A program made the position numbers and the translations under genes. Below, piece after piece: positions 5,696 to 36,542 of a DNA stretch of 43,722 nucleotides. The stretch is from a virus (taxonomy: Duplodnaviria > Caudoviricetes). The notes below the pieces were generated by a model. That model was not told the origin of the DNA and did no database searches. It saw only the letters and a list, made by a program, of their open reading frames with translations. The stretch is from positions 1-43,722 of the IMG/VR virus record IMGVR_UViG_3300025862_000007. One strand, 5' to 3'. Position 1 is the first letter of the stretch; each line of letters starts with the position of its first letter.

Positions 5696-6311
5696 GCGAA
5701 TTAAGGCGATAGAAAAACTCGGTGGGGTAAAGTGCCCCGGACTGTCTTTTATAGACGGACCTGACTGCCCTGTGCACCCTGAACTTTTAACAGTCGATGA
5801 CATGAATTTTTCACATAGAAAATCGTCGATTCGTAAAAGCTGGAAGAAATCCGAAGACCAGATTCTGGGTATGAAGCGCCCAGAAAAAGTTTTTATATTA
5901 CTTTGTTGTATGTGCAACGAAAGAATGCGCCATCTGGCTAAAGAGTTCGGATTTATAAAATTGCCGAAAAGGGTTATAAGCCTTTACTTAGACAAAAATT
6001 GGTCGTTGGAGAGAATTGCTAACGAGTACGGTTGTATCTACGGAACGGTGTCCGGCTTTCTAAAAAGGAATGGTGTAGAGATCAGAAAAGGGTCAAAAAT
6101 GGGTGGGATGTATACTTGGGGCAACCCAGCGGTTAAAGAAAAATTGTTGAGGGAAAGAAGAACGAGGTGGTTTACTCCAGAGAGAATAAAAACTGCCGAA
6201 GAAATGCTGGAAATGTACGATGGTGGAGATAGTTTAAGGGATGTGGCGCAATGGTTTGGGACGACACACCACTCTGTACGGGCGCATTTGAAACTAATAG
6301 GAGAACTCTGA
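5676..6311 (+). CDS. degenerate HNH-like domain fused to two HTH-like DNA-binding modules
   Basis: LGGVKC...C...LTVDD...LLCCMCN resembles the HNH pattern LGGxC..DH..LCxxCN; SLERIANEYG and SLRDVAQWFG are HTH-like; AT-rich. Confidence 0.65.
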   Translation: MNSQKVKRIKAIEKLGGVKCPGLSFIDGPDCPVHPELLTVDDMNFSHRKSSIRKSWKKSEDQILGMKRPEKVFILLCCMCNERMRHLAKEFGFIKLPKRVISLYLDKNWSLERIANEYGCIYGTVSGFLKRNGVEIRKGSKMGGMYTWGNPAVKEKLLRERRTRWFTPERIKTAEEMLEMYDGGDSLRDVAQWFGTTHHSVRAHLKLIGEL

Positions 6312-6862
6312 TGACTGACATTCCGTTTCCAGAAATGCCGAAGATCCCGCGCCTGAGCCGAGACTGTGTCATCACTGAAAAGATTGACGGCACGAACGCG
6401 AATATCTACATCACGGACGACGGGCAATTCCTCACCGGGAGCCGGACGAAGTGGATCACGCCGGGCAAACAGACTGACAACTACGGGTTCAGTCGGTGGG
6501 CTCACGAGTATCGCGCGGATCTCATGAAGCTCGGCCCGGGCCATCACTTCGGTGAATGGTGGGGACTGGGTATCCAGCGCGGCTACGGTTTGACCGAGAA
6601 ACGTTTCTCGTTGTTCGCGACGCACCGTTGGAGTGACCCGGCTGTCCGGCCGGCATGCTGCTCGGTTGTCCCCGTGCTGTATTACGGGATTTTTAGTACG
6701 GAAGTAATTTGGAGAATAATCGATGATTTAGCTGCGGTAGGTAGCGTCGCGGCGCCGGGATTTGGGCAGCCGGAAGGCGTCGTGATCTACCATGAGGCCA
6801 GCAAACAGCTTTTCAAGAAGACGATCGAGAAAGACGATAAACCTAAAGGGAGCCGAGAATAA
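6311..6862 (+). CDS. RNA ligase, Rnl2-like nucleotidyltransferase domain
   Basis: Motif I EKIDGTN, III GEWWG, IIIa FSLF, IV EGVV, V FKK; TGATG coupling; SD AGGAG. Confidence 0.88.
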   Translation: MTDIPFPEMPKIPRLSRDCVITEKIDGTNANIYITDDGQFLTGSRTKWITPGKQTDNYGFSRWAHEYRADLMKLGPGHHFGEWWGLGIQRGYGLTEKRFSLFATHRWSDPAVRPACCSVVPVLYYGIFSTEVIWRIIDDLAAVGSVAAPGFGQPEGVVIYHEASKQLFKKTIEKDDKPKGSRE

Positions 6863-8301: not shown

Positions 8302-8471
8302 TGAGAGACCATTTGATGGTAGGCATCGTATGGCTATCTCTTGTTGATGCGTGCGCTTTCTGGTTGGCGTTATGTACAGGCAAATTAAAAAGCGATTTGT
8401 TCGCAGGTTTTTATATTTTTGTATTCGGGATGGTGTTCGGACTTAGTTTGGTCTGGTTTTTCCTATCCTAA
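8301..8471 (+). CDS. small two-TM protein (56 aa), holin-like topology
   Basis: Hand-translated MRDHLMVGIVWLSLVDACAFWLALCTGKLKSDLFAGFYIFVFGMVFGLSLVWFFLS; TAATG coupling; overlaps the convergent GT2 stop. Confidence 0.6.
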   Translation: MRDHLMVGIVWLSLVDACAFWLALCTGKLKSDLFAGFYIFVFGMVFGLSLVWFFLS

Positions 8472-9236
8472 AAAGGGTTCGAAATCCCCGGTGTATCTGT
8501 CGTTCGGGCTTACGGTTTGCAGGAGCAGCCTGAGCCCGGCGATCTTGTCAGAAATACTTCCCTCCACGCGGTACTGCGGATTCCTGCCGTACATATGAAA
8601 TCCCTGATGAAACGCGATACTCGGGACGGCGCACAACGCCTTCCCGCCGACGGACCGCATCACGCGGCGGATCAGACCGTCGTCGAGGATCCCGGCGTCT
8701 TGCATGTCCGGGAAATGTTTCTCGAGATAGCCTTTCAAATCCGCAAAATACCTGTCGTTGATGTGCGGTACGACTAACGCGAGTTTCTCTCGGCGGTAGC
8801 AGCTGCCGGGATTGCTGAAATACGTCTCGTCTCTATGCCGCAACTTCCGGCCGGAAGTCACGAAGTAATCACCGCTTCGCTGCATTGCTAGATGACGATC
8901 AAAGAAGTCCGGCGCGACCATGACGTCTTCCTCGACAAAGAACACGAATTCCGCGCCAGTCTCGTATCCAGCCTTCAGCGATTGCAGGATGTTCCACGTC
9001 CCTGACGGAACGAGGACATGCTCCCGGGCGTGAAAGATGTCTGCCGTCGGGAAGTACGTATCCCGGACGTAGTCCAGTTCATCGATCCGGGACTGCAGGA
9101 TCGTGTGGTCGAGAAATATCCGGACGTCTAGTTCGTGATTAGCAGCCTGAGTCGTCGAGGCTATTTTTTCCAGAGATAGGGCTAACATCTCGGGCCGACG
9201 ATACGTTGGAATCACCACGACTAACTTCTGGTTCAT
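8463..9236 (-). CDS. glycosyltransferase, GT2/GT-A fold
   Basis: VVVIPTYRRP N-terminal strand motif; FFVEEDV (DxD-like); SD GGAGG. Confidence 0.85.
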   Translation of the reverse strand: MNQKLVVVIPTYRRPEMLALSLEKIASTTQAANHELDVRIFLDHTILQSRIDELDYVRDTYFPTADIFHAREHVLVPSGTWNILQSLKAGYETGAEFVFFVEEDVMVAPDFFDRHLAMQRSGDYFVTSGRKLRHRDETYFSNPGSCYRREKLALVVPHINDRYFADLKGYLEKHFPDMQDAGILDDGLIRRVMRSVGGKALCAVPSIAFHQGFHMYGRNPQYRVEGSISDKIAGLRLLLQTVSPNDRYTGDFEPFLG

Positions 9237-9387: not shown

Positions 9388-9624
9388 TTAAGTTGTAGAA
9401 ACGTCCCGGGTTCGGTCTTTCGCTGATTTCTCGGTCGCGTTCGGGTTCGGCGAAACAGTCCCGCCCTTCGCCGGGATGTCTTGCGGGACGTACCGTGTCT
9501 GGGTATCCTTATCCGTGAACGACGTCGGTGCGGCTGGTGCGGCCTCGATAGTCATGCTAGTCTCGCCGTGCTTCCGCGCTTCGTGCGCTAGGCTGTAAGG
9601 TGCCTTCGTGGTGTCGTTCGCCAT
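9388..9624 (-). CDS. small hypothetical protein (APYSL motif)
   Basis: TAATG coupling to the 2276-aa gene; SD GGAG. Confidence 0.7.
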   Translation of the reverse strand: MANDTTKAPYSLAHEARKHGETSMTIEAAPAAPTSFTDKDTQTRYVPQDIPAKGGTVSPNPNATEKSAKDRTRDVSTT

Positions 9625-12600
9625 TACTTTTCTCCCAAAGCAGATTGTCCGGCCTGTGTCCCGGCATTTTGTCTCATCATTTCACGGAATCCTTCAGCCC
9701 GCTTCGCGTCAGCCGCCTTGACCGGCTTCTCGCTCGGCGCCTTTAGGCTTCTCGATCCGCTTGATCGGGTTTGTACTTCAGCTCCGCCGGGAGTTCCTGA
9801 TCCGCTCCGTCCGGGATCTCCTGACCCATGTAATTGATGTGCAGGTAGTTCTCCTTCGTCAGCGGTATCTGGTTCTCCTTCATCCACTCCAGAACGTAGT
9901 TTCTGGGCGTAATCGGAGATTTTTGTTCTGGCTTCGTCGGCTGTGATTTGTCCATCTAGATGCTCCTTCCAAATTGAGTCTACTCTGGCCTTCGTTCCTG
10001 CAGTTCTTGTCTCAGGCGGGAACATCTTCCGCCACTCGACCCAGACGACTGACTGGAGTTCCCGGGGATAATTGATCGGCGGCTCGTCGGGGTTCTCGGC
10101 ATTGATTTCAGCCATCGCCTGACGGGTTGCCTCGACGTACAGCGGATATGAGCCGCGGACGCCGGTGATACTCGAGCCGTTCCCGCCGAAATTCGTGGCT
10201 GGTTCAGGATCGCTGCCGGCAACAGGTCGTCCGAGAGACAGACCGACGTGGTGGGTGTCGCTCGTGACGTCAGCGTGCGGCGAATTTGGTTCCATGATGT
10301 TGTTGTAGAAGCTTCTCACCTTATGAGCGTCGCCTAAATTCTGGCTGATGTTCTCGAGTGAGCCGTCCTGCATGATATTTATAGCCTTCGCAATCGAGTC
10401 CAGACCGCCCCACGCGACCTTTTCAGGCGTACCGTCTAAAGTTCGGCGCGGCCCGACAACCGTCCCGTCGGCATTCAGTTCGTCGAAGCCTCGGTCGTTG
10501 TGCGCCTCGTCGTATAGACGGAGCCACGCAGCCTTCGCCGCCGGGCTCCCAATCTCGTTGAACGTCTTGCCCTTGAAGGTGTTCAGAAGCTTCCTCTCGA
10601 CCCACGGCTGGGTAATCTTCTGACCCTTGGCGGCCTTCGCGCGGTTAGACGCGTTGATCTGCTTGATGAATTCCGCGCCCTTCTTCTCCATCTCGGGCGT
10701 CATCTCGACATCGCCTTTGTTCTTCATGACGTCGACGATCCGCTTGTACAGACTGACGTTCGCGTCCCAGTCCTTTTGCGGACTCTGGGTCGCCAAAACG
10801 CCTGCAGCTTGGGCATGGCTTATGCCGTTCGCCTCGGCGTCTGTCTTCGTGAAGGCGTGCGCGCCGTCGTACCAGACACGATCTGCGATATGATTCCCGG
10901 CCGCCTTCGCACGGTAATACGTGGCCTTGATGTTGTCCTTCGCCTGACGGACGAATGAGTCGAAGATGCCTTTCGGTCCCTGAGCAACTTCCTCAGGAGT
11001 GAACACCATCGACTTGTTCTGCTTCACGAGTTTGTCAGCCAGACCCTGAGCGACCTTTGGCCGCTCGAGGATCTTGTCGGCCTCGAGTGTCAGATCGTGG
11101 TTCATCGGATCTTCAGTCCGGTTGACCGCGGTCGGGAACCTCGTGCTTACACGCTGGCTCGTTTCTGGATCGTATGGCGCACTCAGCTGTTGTGGCCCAG
11201 CAACGTTCGACACAGGCCGTGAAACTGTTTTATCGGGGTAAAATTTATCTATATCTCGTCGGAAATCTCCGAGAGACCCTTGACCGGATACAGACTTACC
11301 CTTATTATCAAAAAGGTCCCATACCAAATTTCCGTCCCCGACATCGGATTTTGCGGCAACCTTTAAATCATGCGCCAAAATTTCTAATTGTCCTTGACTC
11401 GGCTGTCGATGTATCTGAAGTCCTATACTTCCTCCGTCATTGGGACCGGGATGTATAACTCTAATTGCTCCGGTATCTGCCAACATTTTCGATATCGCGG
11501 ACTCATTCGACATCCCAGAATCGGCGATATAGCCCGCATTGTGCGCTAGATAGGAATGAGCAAATTTACTTGGCGTAATAAGGCCGTTAGGGAGAATTAA
11601 AGATGGTGCTGTACTGTTACGAAAATACTGATCGTAGGTATAAGGAACCGGACGAGCTTCCCGGTCCGGTGTGCTGCTCAAATCTGGTTTACTTCCTTCT
11701 TTCGAATTTTCTAGTTCCGCGGCATTTGCCCCGAAATTAAAGCTCGTGTCACCGGTTTCTGGCTCGGCTTCCGCAGTCTGGCCGGTCTCGAGGTCGATCC
11801 CGGGCTTCGCGCGCAGGTCGGCCATCCGCTGTGCCAGCGGGTAGTCCGGGAAACTCGTGGTCTTCCCAGTCCCGCCTGTCGGGATTTCCTTCCCGTTCTT
11901 GACGTCCCAGATGCTGATCTGATCGAGTTTCTTTCCCAACGCTTCCGCATTAGCCCGACTGTCCGTGCTCGCCGAGACGTTCAATTCCTTCCCGTAGCCC
12001 CCGACCTTTAATTCCGGATGCTCCGCGAATATCTCGCGATTCTCGTTATAGAATTTCTGGATATCCGCCGGCGTCGCGGGGTGGTCTAAATCAACACGGC
12101 CTTCGGGTGTAGCCTCGACTTGATAGCCTTTCGTCGGGACGTCGCCGTTTCTCGGGTCGATAGTGAATCCGCCGTCTTTATTCTGTTCGGCGGCTTTGTG
12201 CGCCCATGGATCCGCGCCGTGGAACTCCTCGGGTAGCAAGGCAGCCTTCTGAGTCGGGAATTCGCCGGGCTCGCCGCCGGATTCTCGCAAAGCCTTGTTG
12301 TTGAATACCCAGTTCGCCTGACCCTTGGTCTCGGTCGCTAGCGCCGGGATGGCTTCCGGGCTGTAACTCTGCCGATGCAGGTTGTAAGCGTTCTCTTCGC
12401 CCTGCTCGCTGAAATCGTTCTGCCCGACTCCGTGTCCGAGGACGTCGTGGACGCCGCGGAACAGCGTGTTGTAGGGCAAGCCTGTCGAGGGCTCGATTTC
12501 CCGCAACGGGTGGTCTTTCGGCATGTCGCCTTCGCCTGACCAGACCGCGATATGCTTGTTGTCGTGGATATCGCGCAGCATTTCCTGAGCGTCGTTGTAG

Positions 12601-15600
12601 TGGTTCGGGTCGTCCGTGACGGTCATCTTGACGCCCTGCTTCTGCAAAGCCTTCCACTGCTCTAGTGTGTCACGTTTCAGCGCGTCGTAACTCGCCTTGA
12701 CGGCCGGGTCGTTAGGGTCGTGCTTCATCGCGTCATAGGCGTCGGCTATTTTGGCGCCTTCCGCCTTGTCGACCGGGATATTGGTCGGCTCTGGCGCAGG
12801 CAGACCCTTCGCTTGATGGAATTCATCGAGGTTCGGGCCCTTATCCTCGTCGCTCTTCCCGGTCGCGAGGTCGATGCCTGACTTCACAGGCTGGTCGCCA
12901 AACAAGAATACCGAACCTGACTTCGATTTCTTGTCTTCGTAACCATCAAAGCCTGCCTTTTGGAGCGCGGCCTCGGCGTCATTCAACGCCTTCTGACTCG
13001 CGACGGTGTCGTTGTCGCCGGCAGCCTTGTATTTCTCGACCGCAGCAGCGTGAGCGTCCTCGAATAACTTCTTTTCACTCCCGCTGATGTCCGCGATCGC
13101 CTTGTCGCCTTCAATCCCGTACTTGTTGGCGCGTGTCGCGATCTGTGGCTCGGGTCGCGCACCCTCGCGGTATGCGTAGACGCCCGGGACGCGGTTATCG
13201 TGTTCGAGACGGGCTTGTTCTGAACCCGCTTTTGACTTCCCGCGAGACTCGCCGCGTATCTGGCCGTCTTCGGCCGGGACGCTTGAGTAATGCGATCCCT
13301 TAAATGCCTGTTTTTCAGGTGTCTTGACCGCGAACTTCTCCCGACTCTCGTTGAGATGCTTCTGGACGAGTTCCGGCGTGACCTCGCGGTGGTCCAGGGC
13401 TAGCGTACTACCGGTTTCAGGGTCGTGGAACATCGCTAAATTCATCATCTTTCCTGCAGGGATGGCTCCCGCAGATCGGATTGCTTCGTCGGCTTTGTCG
13501 TCGCCGGTCGTCGTTTCTTTTAAGCCTGCCCGGCCGGTTTCGAGATCTCCTGCAGGACCTGCGCCTTCATTGCTGCCTTTTGTTCCGGCGTCATTGCCTT
13601 CACGGATTTGTGCATCATTTCCAGCAATTCGTGCGTCGTGAAGCTCTGTTGGGCTTCCGGCTGAGCCTGACTTTTGTTGTTGATAGTGGTCATCTCGTAA
13701 TCTCCTCATCTCGGCCGCGAAGGCCTCGGTTCTTTCCGGACTCGCGTGCATCGTTTCGCTCAATCCAGACTCCCGGACTCCTGCGTTCTGGACGAGTGTA
13801 TCACCGACGCCCGGAATTTGCAAGTTTCTTTTTGCCCGGTCGAGCGCGTACTGGATCGCGCCCTGCGTCTCTTCCGTCGTTAAACCCAACGACTTCCCCA
13901 TTTCATGGATCACTCGGACGTCGGAATGCAAACCTTGGTTCATCTCGAACGGAATCCCGCTGTGCAACTCGTTGGCTGCGGCGCCGCCCATCGTGGTCGC
14001 CAGCATCTTCCCGAAGTTCTCGCGCAACGTCTCAGGGTCAATTTTGCCGTCCACGACCTTGATGCCTGTATCACCAAAATTAATACGAGCCGCCGCAGCC
14101 GGCCTGTTCTTTGCCGACAACGTGTCGTTCAAATGACTCTTGATGCCTTCGGTCCCGAAGCCCTCGATAGCGGCGTTCGCGACGTGTCCCCACTCGTGGA
14201 TATGCGCATCCCGCTGGAACATACCCTTAGGCATATTCTCTGCAGGAATCGGCATCGGCTTTTCGTAGCCTTCCGGATTTTCTGGGTCGTACGGCTTGAA
14301 ATCCGACCGGACGCCTTCCGTCGGGGCCTTGCCGGTCTCGAGGTCAATCGCGCTGCCGGGGGCCGGTGCCTCGGTAGCCTCGGTAGGGTTTACAGGAGCC
14401 TTCTGGGCGGGCTTTCCTGCTTCGGTTGGGGTTGCAGTCGTGCCAGTCGGAGAAGTCCCTGCTACGGGCTTGGCAGGCGGTGTCTTAGCCTCTACGCCGG
14501 GTGGTCGTATCTCATTTACTGGCCTGTTGGGCTGTTCGACCTGCGCGTTGGCTGATTTCGGGGCTTCCGCGGCCTTTCCGGCTTTCTCAATCGCACTCTG
14601 AATTAAGTACTTCGGACTATTGAGGTATTTTGTCAACTGTGGCACAACCGCAGCCATCGGGTGGCCGCTTGCGAACGCCGCAATTGCGCCGAGACTTTCC
14701 TTCAAGTCGATAGGAGCCTGACGTCCGTACACGACGGCACGCTTCTCGAAGATTCTCTGCATCTGGTTCAAAGCGCCGTAATCCTTCCTCAATTCCGGGA
14801 TGTTCTTCTCGCCGAGTTCTGACAGTTTGGCAAAAGCGGCGTCGCGTAGCGTGTCCGCGGCGTCTTGCAGCATCCCTAACTTCGGGTCGGCCTGAGCCAT
14901 CCTGAACTGATCGCTCGGGCTCTGCTTATAGAAATTCCGCAAATCGGAGTTGAATTTCGTGATTGCGCCCATCGCGGAGTCAAGATCGTACGGGCCCTTG
15001 AAGGTATCCGCCCACTTGTCGATCTGGGCCGCCAACGCAGCGTCATGCTTCCTCGTCGCAGGATTGACGCTGTCCTTTAGTTTCTGGGCAATAGCGTCGC
15101 CGTCGATCGTTTCGCCGGGATGCGGCTTAGCTAACTGCTCATCCCACAATTTCGTCTTCTGGGTGTGTGCGGCTTCCGCCATGTCTTCCGGCGTCTTGAT
15201 CGGGTTTGTCTTGTTCTCGTCAACGATGTACTTCAACGCCCTAGGGATGTTTTCTTGGAAGTCTCGTTCTTGGACTCCCGCCGAGCCGCCTGCCGCGCGC
15301 GTGATCTTCGCCTCAGGACCTTCCGTCATGGCGTTATACGGTTGGGCAACAACGCCCTTGGCTAGTTTCGCCGCGCCTTTAACCAAACCTGCGCCCGGGA
15401 TATTTCCCGCAGCGTCCAAAGCCTTACCGCCGTATTCGCCCGCAGCATGAGTCAAGGCATCAATAGACGTCCCGGCCGTGGTGCCTAGATTTGGATTGAA
15501 AGCCTTCTCACCCGTCTCTTCGTTCGTGCCGAGATGCTCGATTCCCTGCTCGCCCATCGCGAGTCCTAACATCATCTTTGTCAGTTCGTACTGGGCCTCA

Positions 15601-21384: not shown

Positions 21385-22491
21385 TTACTGGACTAATCCA
21401 ATCCAGTATTTAGTTCCTGCGATATCGATCTCGAGATAATTCACGATAGTCTGTGGCGCCACGGGACCGCTTCCGGTGCCTAACGTTGTCGTCGTAACCG
21501 GTGTAGCGGGTATCCCGTTACCAAATCCTGTAGTCGTTCCTAAACCAACCTGACCGGCTATTGTCGTTGGTGTCGCGCCAGTCAAAATAACTATCGGGGT
21601 GGTTATCCCGGTAACGAATGTCGGAGACGTCGCTAAAACAACCGCGCCTGAACCGGTCACGCCGTTAGACAAATCTGAAGCAGCGGGCTGGGTCTGTGTG
21701 AACAAGCCCGTAACCGCGTTATACGAATTTAACCATTCATGCGTGGCGGCCGTGATGGTCTGGGGGAGTTGCGGCGTTCCAGATATATCTGAATACGCTA
21801 ACTGTCCGACAGTAAAGGCTCCGCCTACCGTAGCCTGCTGGACTACTTGGTGCGCCCCGCCAGTCGCGGAAAGATTTGCTCCGGTTCCGCCGTAAGTCAC
21901 GCCGACAATCCCGGCTAGAACATCCGTGCCGGATAAAACTGCGCTGACGAAATCCGTCCCGTTACCACGGAGATAATGTCCAGCCGTTGCGGCTCCGGCA
22001 ATCTGGAAACCGGTCGTGGCGTTAAACACCGCGGCCGTGATGTTTCCTGAAAGGATCAACGACCCCGAAACGTTGACGCTCCCGGTGATCGTCACGATGT
22101 TGCTTGCGTTGTTGAATGTCAGAACGCTGCTGCCGGACAAAGCACCACCGTTGTTGAACTGAATGGCGCCGTTCGGCCCGCCTGCCACGGCGTTCACGGA
22201 GTTATTAATCGTCGTGGTTGACCCGCTCTGGACTGCCGCGCCGACCGACGGCTGGCCGGACGCCGCTAACGGGACGAGAGGCAGCTTAGCGATGTTGTAG
22301 GTCCCGAGTTGGGTATTGACGAAATTTACGTCGTGTTGCAGAGTCGGGGAAATCGGACCGGAGAAGAAATTAGCCATCGGGTTCGGACTACCAACAGCAG
22401 CCGCTGGGTTGATGGGCGCAGAGTCGATAGGACGCCAAGATTCCGGTAATCCGGCCTCTTCAGCCAGCGTTGGTTCCTTCTTCTCTTCCAT
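21385..22491 (-). CDS. tail fibre-like structural protein
   Basis: GGPNGAIQFNNGG, V.YGGTGA and TGSGAVVLATSPT fibre repeats. Confidence 0.7.
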   Translation of the reverse strand: MEEKKEPTLAEEAGLPESWRPIDSAPINPAAAVGSPNPMANFFSGPISPTLQHDVNFVNTQLGTYNIAKLPLVPLAASGQPSVGAAVQSGSTTTINNSVNAVAGGPNGAIQFNNGGALSGSSVLTFNNASNIVTITGSVNVSGSLILSGNITAAVFNATTGFQIAGAATAGHYLRGNGTDFVSAVLSGTDVLAGIVGVTYGGTGANLSATGGAHQVVQQATVGGAFTVGQLAYSDISGTPQLPQTITAATHEWLNSYNAVTGLFTQTQPAASDLSNGVTGSGAVVLATSPTFVTGITTPIVILTGATPTTIAGQVGLGTTTGFGNGIPATPVTTTTLGTGSGPVAPQTIVNYLEIDIAGTKYWIGLVQ

Positions 22492-23098
22492 TCAATTTAG
22501 CCTGTTGTGCTTTACGTTTTGCCCAACCCCATTTCATTCCATCAATTCTTCTCTTTCTTTGAAGTGGAGTATAGTTATCCCATGCCGATTTCTGGGCTTT
22601 CGCTATCCCCTCTTTATGCGGAGCAGAAAACTTTTTTCCTAAATTGCCTTTATTTCCTATTGCTGAAAGAGCCTTCTTTTTTCTAGTTTCTAAAGAGTCT
22701 TTTTTACCAAATTTCGGGTGATTAACCCCTAAATTAATTTCGCTCAATTTTCTTTTCGTATCGCCTGATAGTTTTCTGCCCTTTTTCCAACCGGGACCAC
22801 CGTCTCCGCCCTTCGTGATGTTGTATCCGCTGTTTCTAGAGTCAAATTTCTTTATATAAAACATTTCAGCTTTATTTAAAGCTTTGTTTGATTTAAAGCC
22901 TCGGGCTAAAATTTCTATCTCCCAGAATTTTAAATCATGCTTCTTAAAAGCCAAATAGAGTTTAGGGCAACCTTTATCTCCAGACCTTCTGATAAGATTA
23001 ACTCGTCTAGGGTATAGTGTATCTTTACCGATATACCCTACTCGGCCTCGAGAACTTCTGTTATGCCATAATCTGTAAACAACCCTATTGGTTTTCAT
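22460..23098 (-). CDS. GIY-YIG homing endonuclease with NUMOD3-like repeats
   Basis: VVYRL..GYIG..R, catalytic E (AEMFYI), GYNITKGGDG, and K-rich repeats (LSGDTKRKLS, SLETRKK); AT-rich free-standing insert. Start at ATG23098 or GTG23104. Confidence 0.88.
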   Translation of the reverse strand: MKTNRVVYRLWHNRSSRGRVGYIGKDTLYPRRVNLIRRSGDKGCPKLYLAFKKHDLKFWEIEILARGFKSNKALNKAEMFYIKKFDSRNSGYNITKGGDGGPGWKKGRKLSGDTKRKLSEINLGVNHPKFGKKDSLETRKKKALSAIGNKGNLGKKFSAPHKEGIAKAQKSAWDNYTPLQRKRRIDGMKWGWAKRKAQQAKLNGREEGTNAG

Positions 23099-23106
23099 AT
23101 ACACTC

Positions 23107-23138: not shown

Positions 23139-26100
23139 CTAAAATTCGGACATTAGCCTTCCGAAGACGGTGAGGTTAAAAAGCTCATCCCCTACCGAAG
23201 TCTTACCATAATCCACCCGAATTTGAAGGTGTCTGGCTCTAGCAAGACTCTTTGTCGCGCTGAAATAATAACGTAGTGGAGAATACGAACCCGGAACTCC
23301 GGTATTTCCATAAATCGACGGTGGGTCGTACTGCGGGTTTTGGGTAAACGGAAAAAATTCTCCGGAAATTTCGTTCAAAAGAAAACTAACCGTCGGCCGG
23401 AAACTGCGACCACTAAAGTCCATTTCAAGGAATTTGAGGACTGCCAACTGCCCGGGGTGTACAAGCATAATCGAACCCATCGTGAAGTTAGCGTCGTATT
23501 GCACGCCGTTATCCGTAAATTTCTTAAGGTCGCGGTACATGATCTGGTACCCGGGCGCAGGACCTAGCAACGTGATTGAGTTTCCACTCCCGGTGTTGGA
23601 CGGAGAAAAAATCTTGTTGGTGTCGAGAGTCACGGCGCCGTTCTGTGCCCACATCCCGCCGTTCGTCGTTGCGCTCGTGCTTACCGTGATAGACGTCAGA
23701 GCCGCGATAGTCCCGTTGAACACCGCGCTGGTTCCGATCGTGGCCGAACTCCCTACCTGCCAGAATACGTTGGCAGCCAACGCTCCATTCTTCAGTATGA
23801 CAGACCGGCTGTTCGCGACTATCAAAGTCGAGGCTGTCTGGAAGACCCACGTCGAGTCAGGATTTCCAGCCGCGTCGAGTATCAGGTCACCCGACGTGAT
23901 AAAGAACGCGCCGGACGAGCTGCTATAGACACCAGAAATCAAAGTCTGGCCGCCTAAGTCCGGATTTGCCAAAACGGTCGGGACCAGCGTGGCAGCCTGA
24001 TTGTAGGCTTGCGTCAAATCTATCTTAGCTTGAACGGCTGCCGGGTTATCGACGTTCGACGTTCCGGTTACCGTCGGAGATCCGGTGACGGAACTGCCGG
24101 GGCTCAAACCTAGGTCGCCTGTAATGGTCGTCGAACCGGTATTGGTGATCGTCGTGCCGGCCAAGACTCCATACGTTTTTGCGGTTCCGAGATCAATGAC
24201 GCCCTTCGTAGCGAATCCGCTCGCCTGACTTGCTGGACCTGACAGAGTCCCGACCAGCAACTTCTTTAATCCCGGCGCAGTCTGGACGCTCTTAACCATC
24301 TTGCTGCCGTTCGTGATGCTCGCGAAAGGACTCCAGATAGGCTCCGGACCTTGGTATCCGCCCGGTGTCTGGTAAGGGTTCAGCCTGTACCAACCCGTCG
24401 AACCATCGGCAACCATGATGCAGTTATCAATCCCGGTCTGGTGGACCGTGACGTAGCCGGTAGCCGGGTTCCATATCGTATCCGAGACTCCTGACGACGG
24501 CAAGTTGGCGAACTGGTCACCGATAGAGAAGCCGACACGGCTGAGATTCAAACTCGGGCTGATCGCGTAAAACTGGTTATCCGCGCTGAAGAAATAAATT
24601 TCTCCGGCATGGACGTCAATCATGTTGTAGCTCAACAAACCGACGTTCGGAACAAGCTCGACCGAGAAGAACGACGCGGTCTGAGGACCACCGGCGATTA
24701 TCTCGACGCTGTCCGTCAGGAACGTCACCAATCCTTGCGAGTTCTTGACGATAGCCACGACGTTCGCCAAAAACGGCAACTCGTCTGACGGGTTAAACGC
24801 TTCGTTCGGGTTGCCTGTCACGACATCCGGTCCGCCTGAGAAATTTACAGACTGACCTTCCGCACCCCAGATACGCTGGAAGTTATAGACCATCGGCAAA
24901 AATGTCGTGGCCGGCGGATCGTTTGAGTCATCGATTGGCGCCGAAATCAGGACGTTCAGGCCGGGATACAGCGATGTCGGTGCGTCTGGCAAGAAGTCTT
25001 TGAATATCCAGTCGACGTGGACAATACCAGCCGCGGTATTTACTGTAAAAAGTTTCGTTCCAGCCTGAGACGGGATATTCGGGATTTCAGTCAGTTCGAA
25101 CATATTGGTCGGTCCACCACCATCGGCGTCTCGCCAAATAATGATTGTATCGACTTGCGGGTCTGGCGAATAGTTTCCACCGATCGTGTTGACCGCGCCT
25201 GTATCCGCACCCACGATAGTGAACACCGGGGACGCAGTCGAGACAGCATTCGTTTCGCTACCAGTCGGGGCAAGTAATGGGTTGCCCAATCCCGGCGGAA
25301 TCGGGGGATTACCTGTCCCGGCGACGTTGACTGTATAGAAATCAGTCAGTGAACGCGACTTGTAGGAATACGCGTAAACGTGCCCGACTGTCCAACTGAG
25401 AGACTCAGTCGGCGCGACTTCAAGATTGTACCAAAGAGCGGCATTATCGGTCGTGTATTGCCCGATCGGGTTCCATGATGGTGGGCCCGGATTCTCGCCT
25501 ACCCCGCTGTTCGTGACATACTGAATATCCCCGGATTCTACAATCGCGGCTCCGCCGAAAGGCGAACTGCTTGACGGTGGCGAGAATCCAACCGTCGGCA
25601 AAAACCACTTCGTGTTCGGGGCCCATACGTTCGCGACTCCGACGCATGTCCAGACTAGGCCGTCTGTCCCGTCAGTCGTCGTTATGCTTCCATAATTAGA
25701 AGCCCATGTAGGATGGCTTCCGCTTCCGCTCTTTCCTGACGTCGTGCAGACCTGCCAATTCCCATTCGAATCTTTGATGGCCGAAAAAGGCGTCCCGCTC
25801 GCAGTCCATGCAGTATAGTTTGTGCCCGACACCCATGCGTCAGACCCGAGCGACATCCAGATAAGGTCGCCGTCGGTAGTTGGTGTGGTCCCGACCGTCG
25901 CGCCGAAAGGCGGCGGAGTTGTCGCGGATCCAGACGTCCCGCCGTTTGACGAGAATATAAACTCGTACGGAGGACCCGGATTTGGTGGTCCAGAAACTCC
26001 AAGCGTGTTTGGTTCGACAATCGTAGTTGTAGAATCATTATTTGAAACCGTACCGTACGCAGGATACGACTGTCCCGGCTGCCAAATTCCCGGCTGACCC

Positions 26101-27575
26101 GGTAGAACCCCCGGCTGTAAAGCGTTGCCCATATATACCCAGTTCAGACCGTTATCGGGAACGTGCCCATTCGGTCCGGGCACAAATCTCGGGGGTGTGC
26201 TGCCCGCATTTCCCGCAGGACCCGATTGGATATATACAGCCTTTGTTATGGGGTCCCAGACAAAGCACGGCGCAGCGATAGTTCCACTGGTGCTGCCGTT
26301 GCTGTAAAAAGCGTTCGCGACCCATAGACCGACAGGTCCGCGGTTCGTCCAAGTGATTAGACCGTCAGGGACTGTCTGACCGGGAGTCTGCGCCAATGCC
26401 CAGTTAGGCCCGCCTGTTCCGGAAGTCCCGAACTGTGTCGTGTTTGTCGTCGATGCGTTTACGGAAATAAGTTGTTGGACAGAGTTGGTCGTATTATCGT
26501 AGACCAATCCCATCGTCGACCACATCGTGTTCGGTACCCACGTTACCGCCGCGGAGCCGCTCGGAACAATCTGAACCGCAGGCTGGCTTCCCGGCGCAGC
26601 GATTCCCCAGTTCCAGACAGTCCCGTTTGTGTTCAACGGTGTGTACTTCTGGACGTCTACTCCGTCACCGATATAAAGGACTCCGCCGACTGCCGCAAAA
26701 TAGGACTGACCAGCACCGGGCGACTTTCCAAATAGGACAGTCTTGGTGCCGTTCTGGTTATCGACGTAAACCGCGCCTGACGATATCGCGTTGGCTGAGG
26801 CGTTCTCGGATATCGAAAATGAGTTTGCAACAGTCACGGTCAAGTTAGTTGATGCAACGACTGTGAATGTCCCGTTGTTGGACGCGTTTGTGAAACCCGT
26901 TATCGCGAGTTGCAGACCAAAGAAGGCATTATTCGTGGCTGACGGGACAGACGAAGTGAACAAATAGACTGCCGCGCCATCAGCGAAAGCGTTCTTTACT
27001 TCCGCCACGCCGTTCGGATTCGCCAGCGTCAAAGTACTTGTAGTGGATGCCGTGCATAAGAAGACGCCGTTGTTCGCGTTGTTGGTAAATCCGCTAATTA
27101 TAATCGTGTACCCGTTAAAAGCGTTTGAGCCGCCGCCGGTAATGGCTCCGGTATAAACAGTGCTGCCGCCAGAAGCCGCGGCGACAGAAGTCAGCGCGAG
27201 CCTCGGACCGATTGCGCCGTTGACGGTCTGTAGAGGGATGTTACCGGTCGTGCCGGTATCGACAATGACTTGGATGGTTCCGTTGGCGAGTTCAAATGAA
27301 AAAGCAGTGTCTGGCGCAGTAGGGTAGGTGACGGTTGAAAACGGGCTAAGCCCGGGACGACGTTGGAGTGTAAGACGGTTGGTGAGTTCGATGTTGGCGC
27401 CCATCCAGAGCGAGTCAGGACGGCCGCCATAGAACTTAGATTCAATAATGCCGGAAGGGTCGTGCAGCGGGGCGCGTTGTGTGAATAAACCTGTGAAGGC
27501 GCGATCGACAAATAGCGGAACAAATTTAGGTTCCTTCTGTGGTCGCGCGCCTGCTCCTTCCAGTAAATTAGCCAT
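23139..27575 (-). CDS. tail nozzle / stabilisation-type protein (1478 aa) with inserted beta-rich modules, five Trp-rich CBM-like repeats and a DUF3494 ice-binding domain
   Basis: N-terminal L..RPG pattern and position typical of podovirus tail tubular B / P22 gp10-like proteins; DUF3494 signature at about 23607-24200. Confidence 0.75.
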   Translation of the reverse strand: MANLLEGAGARPQKEPKFVPLFVDRAFTGLFTQRAPLHDPSGIIESKFYGGRPDSLWMGANIELTNRLTLQRRPGLSPFSTVTYPTAPDTAFSFELANGTIQVIVDTGTTGNIPLQTVNGAIGPRLALTSVAAASGGSTVYTGAITGGGSNAFNGYTIIISGFTNNANNGVFLCTASTTSTLTLANPNGVAEVKNAFADGAAVYLFTSSVPSATNNAFFGLQLAITGFTNASNNGTFTVVASTNLTVTVANSFSISENASANAISSGAVYVDNQNGTKTVLFGKSPGAGQSYFAAVGGVLYIGDGVDVQKYTPLNTNGTVWNWGIAAPGSQPAVQIVPSGSAAVTWVPNTMWSTMGLVYDNTTNSVQQLISVNASTTNTTQFGTSGTGGPNWALAQTPGQTVPDGLITWTNRGPVGLWVANAFYSNGSTSGTIAAPCFVWDPITKAVYIQSGPAGNAGSTPPRFVPGPNGHVPDNGLNWVYMGNALQPGVLPGQPGIWQPGQSYPAYGTVSNNDSTTTIVEPNTLGVSGPPNPGPPYEFIFSSNGGTSGSATTPPPFGATVGTTPTTDGDLIWMSLGSDAWVSGTNYTAWTASGTPFSAIKDSNGNWQVCTTSGKSGSGSHPTWASNYGSITTTDGTDGLVWTCVGVANVWAPNTKWFLPTVGFSPPSSSSPFGGAAIVESGDIQYVTNSGVGENPGPPSWNPIGQYTTDNAALWYNLEVAPTESLSWTVGHVYAYSYKSRSLTDFYTVNVAGTGNPPIPPGLGNPLLAPTGSETNAVSTASPVFTIVGADTGAVNTIGGNYSPDPQVDTIIIWRDADGGGPTNMFELTEIPNIPSQAGTKLFTVNTAAGIVHVDWIFKDFLPDAPTSLYPGLNVLISAPIDDSNDPPATTFLPMVYNFQRIWGAEGQSVNFSGGPDVVTGNPNEAFNPSDELPFLANVVAIVKNSQGLVTFLTDSVEIIAGGPQTASFFSVELVPNVGLLSYNMIDVHAGEIYFFSADNQFYAISPSLNLSRVGFSIGDQFANLPSSGVSDTIWNPATGYVTVHQTGIDNCIMVADGSTGWYRLNPYQTPGGYQGPEPIWSPFASITNGSKMVKSVQTAPGLKKLLVGTLSGPASQASGFATKGVIDLGTAKTYGVLAGTTITNTGSTTITGDLGLSPGSSVTGSPTVTGTSNVDNPAAVQAKIDLTQAYNQAATLVPTVLANPDLGGQTLISGVYSSSSGAFFITSGDLILDAAGNPDSTWVFQTASTLIVANSRSVILKNGALAANVFWQVGSSATIGTSAVFNGTIAALTSITVSTSATTNGGMWAQNGAVTLDTNKIFSPSNTGSGNSITLLGPAPGYQIMYRDLKKFTDNGVQYDANFTMGSIMLVHPGQLAVLKFLEMDFSGRSFRPTVSFLLNEISGEFFPFTQNPQYDPPSIYGNTGVPGSYSPLRYYFSATKSLARARHLQIRVDYGKTSVGDELFNLTVFGRLMSEF

Positions 27576-28802: not shown

Positions 28803-29417
28803 TTAACTGCCCGCGTAGACTTCTTCAGGTTCGTCGGCCGGCTTCAGTAAAGCCTCAACCGAGTATCCGGCCGGGCTTTTGAAGACCGCTAAAACTCCGC
28901 CCGGTTCTACCTTGGCGTGATCCATATCATCGTGAAGCATCCGGTTGATTTCTTTAATGACAGACCCATGGACGCCGACTACGACAGGGTTCTTGGCGGA
29001 TTCGCCTTTGTGAATCAACTGCATTATCTTGGCGTCGACCCGCTTCCGGAAATCACCGACCTTCTCGCCGTCCGGAATCTGTTCTTCCGGATGTTCCCGA
29101 TACCACTTTAATTCTTTCAGGTTTTCTTTATCTTTCGGCTTTCCCGCGAACTCGCCCGTGTCGAGGGAATCTAGAGCCTTCAAAGGCTTCATCTGCATGC
29201 CTTTCGCTTCCATCAACGGCTTCATCGTCTGGGCGACGCGCTTCCGGGTGCTGCCGTACGCTCCGCTGAAAGCCTTATTCGCGAAGAAAGGCACGAGCGC
29301 AGCCGCCTGCTTCTCGCCGTCCGCGTCGAGTGGGATGTCAAGGTCGCCGCGGAATTCGTTTTCTTTGTTGAGTTCTGTTTCTCCGTGCCTGATAAAAAAT
29401 GCGATAATCTTTTTCAT
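28803..29417 (-). CDS. histidine phosphatase (phosphoglycerate mutase superfamily)
   Basis: FIRHGET motif, S..R..QT, GE, VGVHG. Confidence 0.9.
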   Translation of the reverse strand: MKKIIAFFIRHGETELNKENEFRGDLDIPLDADGEKQAAALVPFFANKAFSGAYGSTRKRVAQTMKPLMEAKGMQMKPLKALDSLDTGEFAGKPKDKENLKELKWYREHPEEQIPDGEKVGDFRKRVDAKIMQLIHKGESAKNPVVVGVHGSVIKEINRMLHDDMDHAKVEPGGVLAVFKSPAGYSVEALLKPADEPEEVYAGS

Positions 29418-30071
29418 TTAACCTTCGCTACAATGCCTACAACTTTCTGACTTGATTCCACGATTTACGTGATAACGAATGTGGGCACCTTTTAGAGCGC
29501 CTAATTTGCCGTTCAAAATTCTTTGCTCAGGAGGAATAGAGTGAGACGCTTTCGTCGCTCTCGCTTTCTTTTCTTCAGGAGACAATCTAGCTCTTTCTGC
29601 CCTGATGCCTTTTGTTCTATCGAAACCGGGAGCGAAAATGCCGACTTGTTTTTCTTGCGCTATTTTAGCCCAACTGCTTAACTGCTCAGACGTGGCGTTT
29701 TGATAATTTTTATGTCCTCGAGTTTTATAGAGCGGTTTACCTAATTTAGACTTTCTCATCTTTTCACGGACTTCCGGAGAAAATCCTTCGCTAGTTATGC
29801 CCTCGCCACCGGCTGTGAGATTCCTTAAACAACCAGTCCCCAAATCCAATCTTCCGTAATACTTAATGAAGAATTTCTCTGTCTCAAAAGCTGATTCTTC
29901 GTCGCGACACAGGATAATCTGAATAAACTTGGAATCTCTGGGGACTTTCAACCTATGATCAGCTTGCGTAGAAGCGCGATCACCTTTACCTTTTCCGATG
30001 TAATACGGGCTGCCTATCGGCCACCCGTTAGTATTAGTCGACCGCATCCAGATATATGCATAAAACATCAT
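29418..30071 (-). CDS. GIY-YIG homing endonuclease
   Basis: FYAY...YYIGKG..R, catalytic E (ETEKFFI), NLTAGGEG, and NUMOD3-like SPEVREKMRKS. Confidence 0.85.
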   Translation of the reverse strand: MMFYAYIWMRSTNTNGWPIGSPYYIGKGKGDRASTQADHRLKVPRDSKFIQIILCRDEESAFETEKFFIKYYGRLDLGTGCLRNLTAGGEGITSEGFSPEVREKMRKSKLGKPLYKTRGHKNYQNATSEQLSSWAKIAQEKQVGIFAPGFDRTKGIRAERARLSPEEKKARATKASHSIPPEQRILNGKLGALKGAHIRYHVNRGIKSESCRHCSEG

Positions 30072-35379: not shown

Positions 35380-36036
35380 CTAGAACTGATAATCTTCTGG
35401 GCCGGCATCGACCTCGGCGTGATTGCGGAAGAACCACAACGACTCGCGGTAGATGATACTCGTCTCGCCGTCTGACGGCCTGCCGAAGATCTCGTGCGCC
35501 TTCTTCTCGGTCAGGATCTGTTTCTCGATCAGTTGCATGAGTACGGTCCGCCAGCCTCGGAAGTCCTCTCCCGCGGGCAAGCCGTGGCGGTCGACCTTCA
35601 GGACGGACCATTCGTACATTGCGGGTACCTGTAGATAGCAGACGTACTGCAGTTTATCGCTGTCCGGCCGGATCGCCCACAACGCGATGGTCTGCGGCGG
35701 GAATCCGTTATCGATTGTGAAACACTTCACGCCGTTCCGGCGGAGTTTATCGACGAAGTCGCGCGTTCCGATCGCGTTGATCTTTCGCGCCTTGGCATTC
35801 ATCAACAACTCTTGTCTCTCCATTTTGTACTGGGAAACTTGCGAATCAGATTCTTCCTTGGCGGCTTGGAAACTTTCTCTGACAAAATTCTTGTAATCTT
35901 CTGGCCGCTTAACCCAGTTTGGCGTCCCGTCAGCCAATAATTTTTTAATCGTTGCTTGTGTCGCCTTGATGTTGTGACGGTGCTTGAAGGGATTCGAGAG
36001 GTCGGAGCCTGAAACTATCTTGCGCATGTCTTGCAT
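35380..36036 (-). CDS. hypothetical protein of the head module
   Basis: 218-aa ORF, TAATG coupling; RGWRTVL motif. Confidence 0.7.
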   Translation of the reverse strand: MQDMRKIVSGSDLSNPFKHRHNIKATQATIKKLLADGTPNWVKRPEDYKNFVRESFQAAKEESDSQVSQYKMERQELLMNAKARKINAIGTRDFVDKLRRNGVKCFTIDNGFPPQTIALWAIRPDSDKLQYVCYLQVPAMYEWSVLKVDRHGLPAGEDFRGWRTVLMQLIEKQILTEKKAHEIFGRPSDGETSIIYRESLWFFRNHAEVDAGPEDYQF

Positions 36037-36446
36037 TATTGTTTTCCTTTAAGCCATTCGTGTATTTTTTCTATTTCTTCAAGAGTTGCGTTGTTCTTAA
36101 TTCTGTTTGCCCTAAAAGACATAATAGAAATATTGCCCTTCACGTACCCCAATTCTGGGATGCGTTTATCCAGACTTGGAGAATTGTCTCGAAAACCACC
36201 TATGCCGATATTGTATTTTAACTCTATACCCAAAACCGGACAGTGGGACGGGATATCGAAATCATCGGCGCTCAAGTTAAACGGAACATTTTCTTTTTTG
36301 GCGCGATGTTTTGCACTAGATAACAAACGTAACTTTGGATTTTCTCGACGGTGATTATACCTGCGTTCCTTATAGCAATCGGTACAGACGTTGTTATTCT
36401 TATAATATTTATTTTTAGGCAACTTGCAATTTGTACAAAGTCGCAT
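36036..36446 (-). CDS. HNH-like (beta-beta-alpha-Me) homing endonuclease
   Basis: CxxC..CxxC N-terminus; CPVLG..SPSLDK..GYVKGN..RAN..KN; AT-rich; ATG36446 with SD AAGGAG. Confidence 0.82.
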   Translation of the reverse strand: MRLCTNCKLPKNKYYKNNNVCTDCYKERRYNHRRENPKLRLLSSAKHRAKKENVPFNLSADDFDIPSHCPVLGIELKYNIGIGGFRDNSPSLDKRIPELGYVKGNISIMSFRANRIKNNATLEEIEKIHEWLKGKQ

Positions 36447-36452
36447 TTTAGT

Positions 36453-36503
36453 ACTCTCCTTGAAAGAGTTGGTCGGGAGCACGTTCAAGGCGTGCCCCCA
36501 ACC
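36453..36503 (-). promoter_or_regulatory. structured 5' leader: 13-bp hairpin followed by an RBS-sequestering hairpin
   Basis: Stem 36471-36483 pairs with 36491-36503; second stem 36453-36459/36463-36469 covers the AAGGAGAG SD. Confidence 0.65.
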
Positions 36504-36513
36504 TACTTTTATA

Positions 36514-36542
36514 ATCTTAACACAGATGGCCGTCTGTGTCAA
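36514..36542 (-). promoter_or_regulatory. sigma70-type promoter TTGACA-N17-TAAGAT (extended -10) of the HNH gene
   Basis: On the - strand: TTGACA 36542-36537, TAAGAT 36519-36514; inverted repeat ACACAGA/TCTGTGT (36520-36539). Confidence 0.75.

Follow-up and report, generated by a model that had tools for sequence, protein, structure and literature searches.

The 70-codon open reading frame (ORF) described here, which lies in the +1 frame of a giant phage gene, is a genuine gene, overprinted on the linker that follows an enzyme domain. It was identified in the window, a linear virus record of 43.7 kb (43,722 nucleotides) that is ~41% complete. In agreement with the original prediction of an overprinted gene, the small frame is under purifying selection, and homologues are found that stand alone or lie antisense to the enzyme. 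The product is probably a cognate inhibitor, that is, an immunity protein, of a virion-injected effector with a glycosylase fold. The features of the window are collected in Table 1.

Table 1. Position of the overprinted genes, the enzyme domains and the putative catalytic residues in the window
Feature	Position	Strand	Remarks
Giant ORF, 2,276 aa	16454-9624	minus	last large gene of the virion gene block; multidomain
HExxH (HEWGH) metallopeptidase-like domain of giant protein	13680..14222	minus	named from motif
Second overprinted gene, 57 aa	13693-13520	minus	+1 frame; AGGAG before ATG; directly behind HExxH domain
Long-form DUF7178 domain	9900..10991	minus	PF23802 split by ~100-130-aa insertion; predicted HhH-GPD glycosylase fold
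Lys2045 (HKVRSF)	10320..10322	minus	putative Endonuclease III lyase lysine; equivalence by motif
Asp2066 (VTSDTH)	10257..10259	minus	putative HhH-GPD catalytic aspartate; equivalence by motif
Shine-Dalgarno-like AAGGAG	9968-9963	minus	7 nt before ATG; made by host-frame Lys-Glu codons
Small gene, 70 codons	ATG 9955 to TAA 9743	minus	+1 frame of giant ORF; conserved core aa 19-60

Structure and selection of the overprinted gene

The ribosome-binding motif, start codon and 70-residue product that had been proposed for the small gene are all present in the sequence, and its register relative to the host frame is +1. In the window a TAG directly precedes the ATG, and the end of the small gene is separated from the host stop by 39 codons. 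Assembled contigs from two possible source runs cover positions 9490-10517 at a depth of ~18 with no differences and no gaps, so no assembly frameshift is indicated. For positions 9400-11200 no RNA data set was listed, a result that has no bearing on expression. The first ~17 codons of the small gene show little conservation and have a pLDDT below 60 in the model of the product; they lie over the last conserved helix of the enzyme domain. Since the Shine-Dalgarno (SD) motif and the ATG are drawn from codons of this conserved host helix, they could partly be by-products in this clade. Over the core of the small gene, the host frame of 29 nested representatives is rich in glycine (16%), serine (11%), alanine (10%) and arginine (10%).

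Selection was measured on 89 nested loci, which were reduced to 61 at 97% enzyme identity and gave 214 pairs of at least 65% enzyme identity, including 20 disjoint pairs. Over identical bases, pN/pS for the disjoint pairs is 0.35 when read in the small frame and 1.28 when read in that of the host, and their differences fall on positions 1, 2 and 3 of the small-frame codons in the proportion 169/150/351. Conservation was higher in the small than in the host frame in all 20 of these pairs. The same is seen when the window is compared with locus L001 (30/41 identical residues in the small frame, 25/41 in the host frame) and with locus L007 (28/41 and 19/41, respectively). Start signals were scored in 26 of the 29 nested representatives (clustered at 70%), where an ATG is found in 25, against 53% of open +1 control windows, and an ATG with an SD motif in 19, against 11% of these windows. 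The host frame continues for more than 100 aa beyond the small stop in 22 of the 29 representatives, and these are thus true nested genes in a linker.

The 70-aa product has a pI of 4.8 and a net charge of -4. Its predicted structure (mean pLDDT 71) consists of three to four short helices and is acidic in its C-terminal half; no solved structure matched this medium-confidence model above a Z score of 3.7. The family, with the consensus D.VL..MK...IPLTRENYL..AY.G..P..L..E.EA.LP, includes 160 representatives at 50% identity, and 129 of the 149 new ones among those listed measure no more than 100 aa. Its acidic columns 50, 52 and 54 are conserved and Tyr37 is retained in 95% of members. The core carries a negative net charge in 120 of 124 homologues (median -6), the one property on which DNA mimicry would be based. 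No Pfam or PHROG family is common to the 124 members, structural database searches with the small protein returned no usable Atlas match and a single weak BFVD row, and a tblastn search with one homologue against cultured phages and plasmids gave no match. In the public record LS06-2018-MD07 a nested copy lies unannotated within a single giant CDS.

The glycosylase-like domain and the giant protein

The model of the enzyme domain (pLDDT 92.5) displays a two-lobed helical fold. The first 20 rows of the structure search comprise 18 HhH-GPD DNA glycosylases and two queuine-salvage hydrolases. The closest match is OGG2 Tm1821 (3n0u; Z score of 9.0 and rmsd of 3.8 over 183 aligned residues), and others include Endonuclease III (2abk; Z score of 6.5), AGOG (1xqp; Z score of 7.1) and Qng1/DUF2419 (7ugk; Z score of 8.0), with queuine-salvage DUF2419 structures at ranks 2 and 3 (Z scores of 8.0 and 7.8). 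The glycosylase-like character originally ascribed to the domain is thus borne out by the HhH-GPD fold of the model, for which a best Z score of 9.0 in a helical protein represents moderate support. Foldseek of the domain against the PDB gave no match at E 0.001, sequence searches of the PDB gave none, and comparing a shallow profile against five Nth/MutY sequences gave no significant score.

Residues S-P, K, R, N-N, T-D-T-H, Q-S and W are invariant in 81/81 enzyme representatives, although half of this set was picked on the K motif and the invariance of the lysine is thus partly fixed by the choice of loci. From the residue roles in Endonuclease III, together with motif and spacing, we take Lys2045 and Asp2066 to be the putative lyase lysine and catalytic aspartate, respectively. 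The spacing between the two residues is 18 in the short form of the domain, as in Nth, whereas 129 of 168 long forms have a spacing of 21. The domain is predicted to be an active base-excising enzyme with a bifunctional glycosylase-lyase Lys/Asp pair, and some public records already label short DUF7178 forms as glycosylase.

The terminase, portal and capsid genes of the window are all encoded, like the giant ORF, on the minus strand. In a Pfam scan of the giant protein DUF7178 was the sole match, located at the C-terminus in two pieces around the insertion. Relatives combine the DUF7178 domain with ART-PolyVal, LPD38, LPD22 and RadC, and ART-PolyVal or LPD domains were found in 5 of 30 related host proteins scanned. 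The proteins that host the domain extend from about 500 to more than 3,000 aa, some being encoded between portal and capsid genes, and by eye several long-form enzymes (L064; P0017-P0020, P0022, P0024, P0025) resemble internal head proteins of large phages. A MuF domain is absent by Pfam from the window protein and from the 30 related host proteins, some of which are cut by locus ends. According to PMC5512222, the genes of phage polyvalent proteins lie within the late virion genes, and their products are likely carried in the particle and injected. By its gene position and by analogy with these published proteins, the giant protein would be of the polyvalent type and would be delivered by the virion.

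Other genes of the virion block include a 1,478-aa protein with an ice-binding-like domain (23139-27575, minus strand; PF11999, E 9e-54), a histidine phosphatase (28803-29417, minus strand) and three homing-endonuclease-like genes (22460-23104, 29418-30071 and 36036-36542, minus strand). A gene that is glycosyltransferase-like by eye lies two genes past the giant gene (8463-9236, minus strand) and is also present in L001, and an RNA ligase family gene is located at 6251-6862 (plus strand).

Linkage to the enzyme, orphan copies and a second gene

The relation between the small gene and the enzyme was analysed from both sides. The enzyme-picked set comprises the best 80 of 276 viral loci, all with the KVRSFYNN motif, and its 12,887 six-frame segments were searched with a small-gene profile built solely from protein-database matches. 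The small gene was recovered in 70 of the 80 loci, with no other match among the 12,887 segments, and an iterated profile recovered it in 72. When the enzymes were clustered at 70% identity, 35 of 40 clusters had at least one member with the small gene. Among the 70 matches, 67 lie on the enzyme strand and adjoin the domain end, while three lie antisense over the domain 3' end; by layout, 20 are nested, 19 partly overlapping, 16 tandem in +1, 12 tandem in +2 and three antisense. In the converse set, the best 80 of 141 viral loci chosen through the small protein, the enzyme was found in 79 loci, the 80th being cut by the contig end. Homologues therefore exist and are tied to the glycosylase-like domain (70/80 and 79/80), as the original prediction expected.

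In a tree of 81 enzymes, built by a quick method, the layouts are interleaved and the antisense cases fall in two places. Because nested, overlapping, tandem and antisense layouts all occur, the link is functional and not a by-product of the reading frame, and, as its persistence across layouts, host proteins and many unrelated phages shows, enzyme and small gene move as a cassette. Small genes antisense to, and convergent on, the enzyme 3' end are seen in L056 (2229-2507), L060, L063 and L120 (3970-4144).

The small partner of the enzyme is not obligate. Of the ten non-matching enzyme-picked loci, two were regained by the iterated profile, three contain diverged look-alikes identified by eye and one a deleted remnant; L064, L067 and L082/L087 have intact-looking enzymes and no small-gene match. 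The complete genomes CRP-738 and zth2-2 encode an intact long-form enzyme and the small gene was matched nowhere in them. For cultured phages with a short or intermediate DUF7178, the small gene was not found in the whole records of five, nor in the flanks of a sixth. Enzyme and small domain occupy a single frame in protein P0197, a fusion with a degenerate active site that may be a frameshifted remnant. In L031 the small gene has been largely lost to a deletion behind the enzyme domain, which also shortens the host frame; the codons for the acidic tail survive. In P0122, P0195 and L010 (3674-4942) the small domain is located at the start of longer proteins, one of which ends in zeta-toxin/AAA_33. 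Loci L002-L005, initially taken as homologous, were dropped as false positives in T4-like contigs.

Beyond the viral collections, copies of the small gene without the enzyme are frequent, and 9 of 11 genome loci carrying the small gene lack it. Nor was the enzyme found in the eight metagenome-assembled genomes (MAGs) behind the orphan genome loci, which are incomplete, and two linked controls were positive. Acidobacteriota MAGs carry one to four copies of the small gene each. The 80 metagenome loci comprise 37 with the enzyme, 28 without it over at least 400 nt upstream (23 clusters) and 15 that are too short. Since orphans are commonly found without the enzyme, a role independent of the enzyme would also fit. 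Orphans lie near integrases in L184, L198, L200, L203, L244 and L258, and others lie near transposases or a resolvase. Elements flanked by integrases or transposases, with phage-like unknown genes around the orphans, are present in L184 (4900-5450, 6072-9289), L187-L189 and L194-L204, and the orphan-bearing elements could be satellites or decayed prophages. One orphan copy is located directly upstream of a SIR2-like gene (L302, 1068-2318) and another ~2 kb from a type I restriction specificity (S) subunit (L265, 114-989).

The giant ORF contains a second overprinted gene behind its HExxH domain (Table 1), a domain for which no Pfam or PHROG match was found. The second gene is nested in the same manner behind the HExxH domain in every enzyme-bearing locus that its profile matched. 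It is conserved in L001, L007 and the L148-L174 group, with two tandem copies in L163. In addition, it lies 83-535 nt from an orphan first gene, with neither enzyme nor peptidase, in L184/185, L187, L189, L200, L256, L264, L285 and L294. Four database proteins (P0030, P0046, P0185 and P0194) are fusions of the two small genes. Such enzyme-free neighbours come from Acidobacteriota genomes and metagenome contigs, often close to integrases. The second gene was found in three of eight genome orphan loci checked and in 4 of 43 enzyme-free metagenome loci, many of which are short. The two genes, which in the phage lie 3.7 kb apart behind different enzyme domains, thus occur together without the enzymes, a pattern that is typical of immunity genes and hard to explain for helpers. 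For a third +1 ORF (15046-14876) with a weak SD motif, no similar sequence was seen by eye in L001 or L007.

Proposed role and comparison with known systems

The small gene, which has its own SD motif and start, evolves under purifying selection and is co-inherited with the enzyme domain in whichever protein that domain resides. The giant protein, to judge from its gene position and from published polyvalent proteins, would be a late product that is packaged in the head and enters the cell together with the DNA. The small protein would be produced from the same mRNA and may bind the domain by means of its helical core and its acidic tail. In this way it would prevent the enzyme from acting on phage DNA during replication and on the producing cell. 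The enzyme would reach the next cell without the small protein, where it could attack host or rival DNA. With the inhibitor placed within the linker, enzyme and inhibitor would form one cassette that may be shuffled into the middle of giant genes while leaving the frame unbroken, and integrative elements of the host would gather inhibitor genes alone, protecting against injected effectors.

It is unlikely, although tight linkage and co-translation fit this equally well, that the small protein is instead a positive partner, such as a folding chaperone, an activator or a specificity subunit of the long-form enzyme that perhaps binds the insertion. The small gene occurs with the long form, no copy was found for short DUF7178 genes that stand alone, and the in-frame fusion P0197 points the same way. 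However, intact long-form enzymes exist without the small gene, and the orphans, of which a genome often has several, next to the orphaned partner of another domain, lack an enzyme that they could assist.

The analogy with Ugi that accompanied the original prediction stands in part, inhibition being the best reading of the role, while kinship with Ugi is not supported, the medium-confidence, all-helical model having no structural match above a Z score of 3.7. The linkage points to the phage's own enzyme as the target, unlike the host target of Ugi. A strict form of the analogy, in which a DNA mimic blocks a host glycosylase of repair or anti-phage defence, or some other defence protein that binds DNA, and shares a pathway with the phage domain, is improbable. 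The acidic core, its conserved acidic columns and Tyr37 would suit such a mimic, as would the many orphans in cellular genomes and the existence of anti-phage glycosylases (PMC11078745; 10.1101/2025.10.29.685425). Against it, the enzyme accompanies nearly all of the small-protein-picked viral loci (79 of the best 80 of 141), the position at the domain end is kept even in antisense, and an inhibitor aimed at the host would be expected to be encoded early and not within a late virion gene.

Next in descending order of probability, and likewise doubtful, the enzyme could be a nucleotide or tRNA-base hydrolase similar to Qng1, or a base-modifying transferase similar to aGPT-Pplases, with the small protein as its regulator. 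The high ranks of the queuine-salvage DUF2419 structures are consistent with the former, and aGPT-Pplases, described in PMC8989533 as HhH proteins that resemble glycosylases and transfer amino acids to DNA, with the latter. The K...T.DTH signature nevertheless follows Endonuclease III/OGG2, with the short-form spacing of 18 and the mostly 21-residue spacing of long forms, the invariant cysteine of clade 2 aGPT-Pplases is absent, and no Pfam aGPT-Pplase match was obtained.

Programmed frameshifting, by which the +1 frame would serve as a C-terminal extension in a second form of the giant protein, is very improbable: the constant +1 register of all nested cases and the P0197 fusion would agree with it, but a TAG lies right before the ATG in the window and in L007, 25 of 26 scored representatives retain the ATG, and +2, antisense and orphan stand-alone forms exist. 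Finally, a shadow ORF held open by the codon use of the host protein, for which it may be argued that 64 of 624 (10%) 60-codon +1 windows within the enzyme domain are open, is refuted by the selection test (pN/pS of 0.35 versus 1.28) and the profile matches in 70 of 80 enzyme-picked loci, and conflicts with the stand-alone and antisense homologues and the 160 representatives of the family.

A cognate inhibitor of the injected enzyme, the preferred reading, would provide a protein inhibitor of an HhH-GPD glycosylase and a function for DUF7178, and would explain how phages make toxic injected enzymes with their own DNA unharmed. In the literature searched, which covers few subscription journals, no description of DUF7178 or of the small family, and no protein inhibitor of an HhH-GPD glycosylase, turned up. 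A wider proposal is advanced more tentatively. Giant virion proteins may be strings of effector cassettes, in each of which the +1 frame of the linker behind the effector encodes its inhibitor; in one of them, an HhH-GPD glycosylase that attacks DNA would be paired with its own protein inhibitor. In soil bacteria, integrative elements may have captured these antidotes into arrays that immunise against injected enzymes, which would constitute an unrecognised layer of anti-phage defence. Nested genes are a layer missed by annotation, as in LS06-2018-MD07, and if a +1 gene behind a domain is taken as the mark of a self-toxic effector, giant phage genes could be screened for both effectors and inhibitors. 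The orphan arrays are directly testable as defence genes.

As a toxin-immunity pair, the system would be new in its layout, target class and orphan arrays. The MuF polymorphic toxin-immunity pairs of temperate phages, in which a small downstream ORF is read as immunity, are similar in that an enzymatic domain is part of a protein associated with the head and its gene is followed directly by the small ORF (PMC5576092), and some long-form DUF7178 genes also lie between portal and capsid genes (CRP-738 gp40, L060). In contrast, no MuF domain was found here, the glycosylase-fold domain is often in the middle of a protein of 1,500-3,200 aa, and the small gene is overprinted within the gene, that of MuF pairs following the stop. 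The resemblance to polyvalent proteins would lie in giant multidomain proteins encoded among virion genes, with relatives that carry ART-PolyVal, LPD38, LPD22 and RadC. The words "glycosylase" and "overlap" are absent from the main text of PMC5512222, whose supplements could list the domain under another name, and no nested partner genes were seen in the part of that paper available.

The enzyme domain shares its fold and Lys/Asp motifs with HhH-GPD glycosylases (3n0u, 1xqp, 2abk) and Qng1 (7ugk), but differs from them in its large insertion, its lack of Fe-S cysteines, an identity of 6-12% and its location within a virion-block protein. Short stand-alone DUF7178 proteins (DroogsArmy gp83, "glycosylase"; Kumao gp115, "N-glycosylase") belong to the same Pfam family and, unlike the long form, measure ~190-230 aa, lack the insertion, are encoded among small genes at genome ends and had no partner found. 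Ugi, p56 and SAUGI are DNA-mimic inhibitors of uracil-DNA glycosylase, and Ugi blocks the host enzyme. The small protein resembles them as a small acidic protein proposed to block a glycosylase, and differs in its all-helical model, in that no sequence or fold match to them was found and in its proposed target, the phage's own HhH-GPD enzyme. Rz/Rz1 are nested phage genes, and here too the product of an out-of-frame gene likely works with the host-frame product. In contact-dependent toxin systems, arrays of orphan immunity genes are collected without toxins, much as the immunity-like genes described here are gathered without theirs. In contrast with both systems, the two traits are combined here in one family, and, unlike the contact-dependent arrays, the orphans would face enzymes injected by phages and not bacterial toxins.
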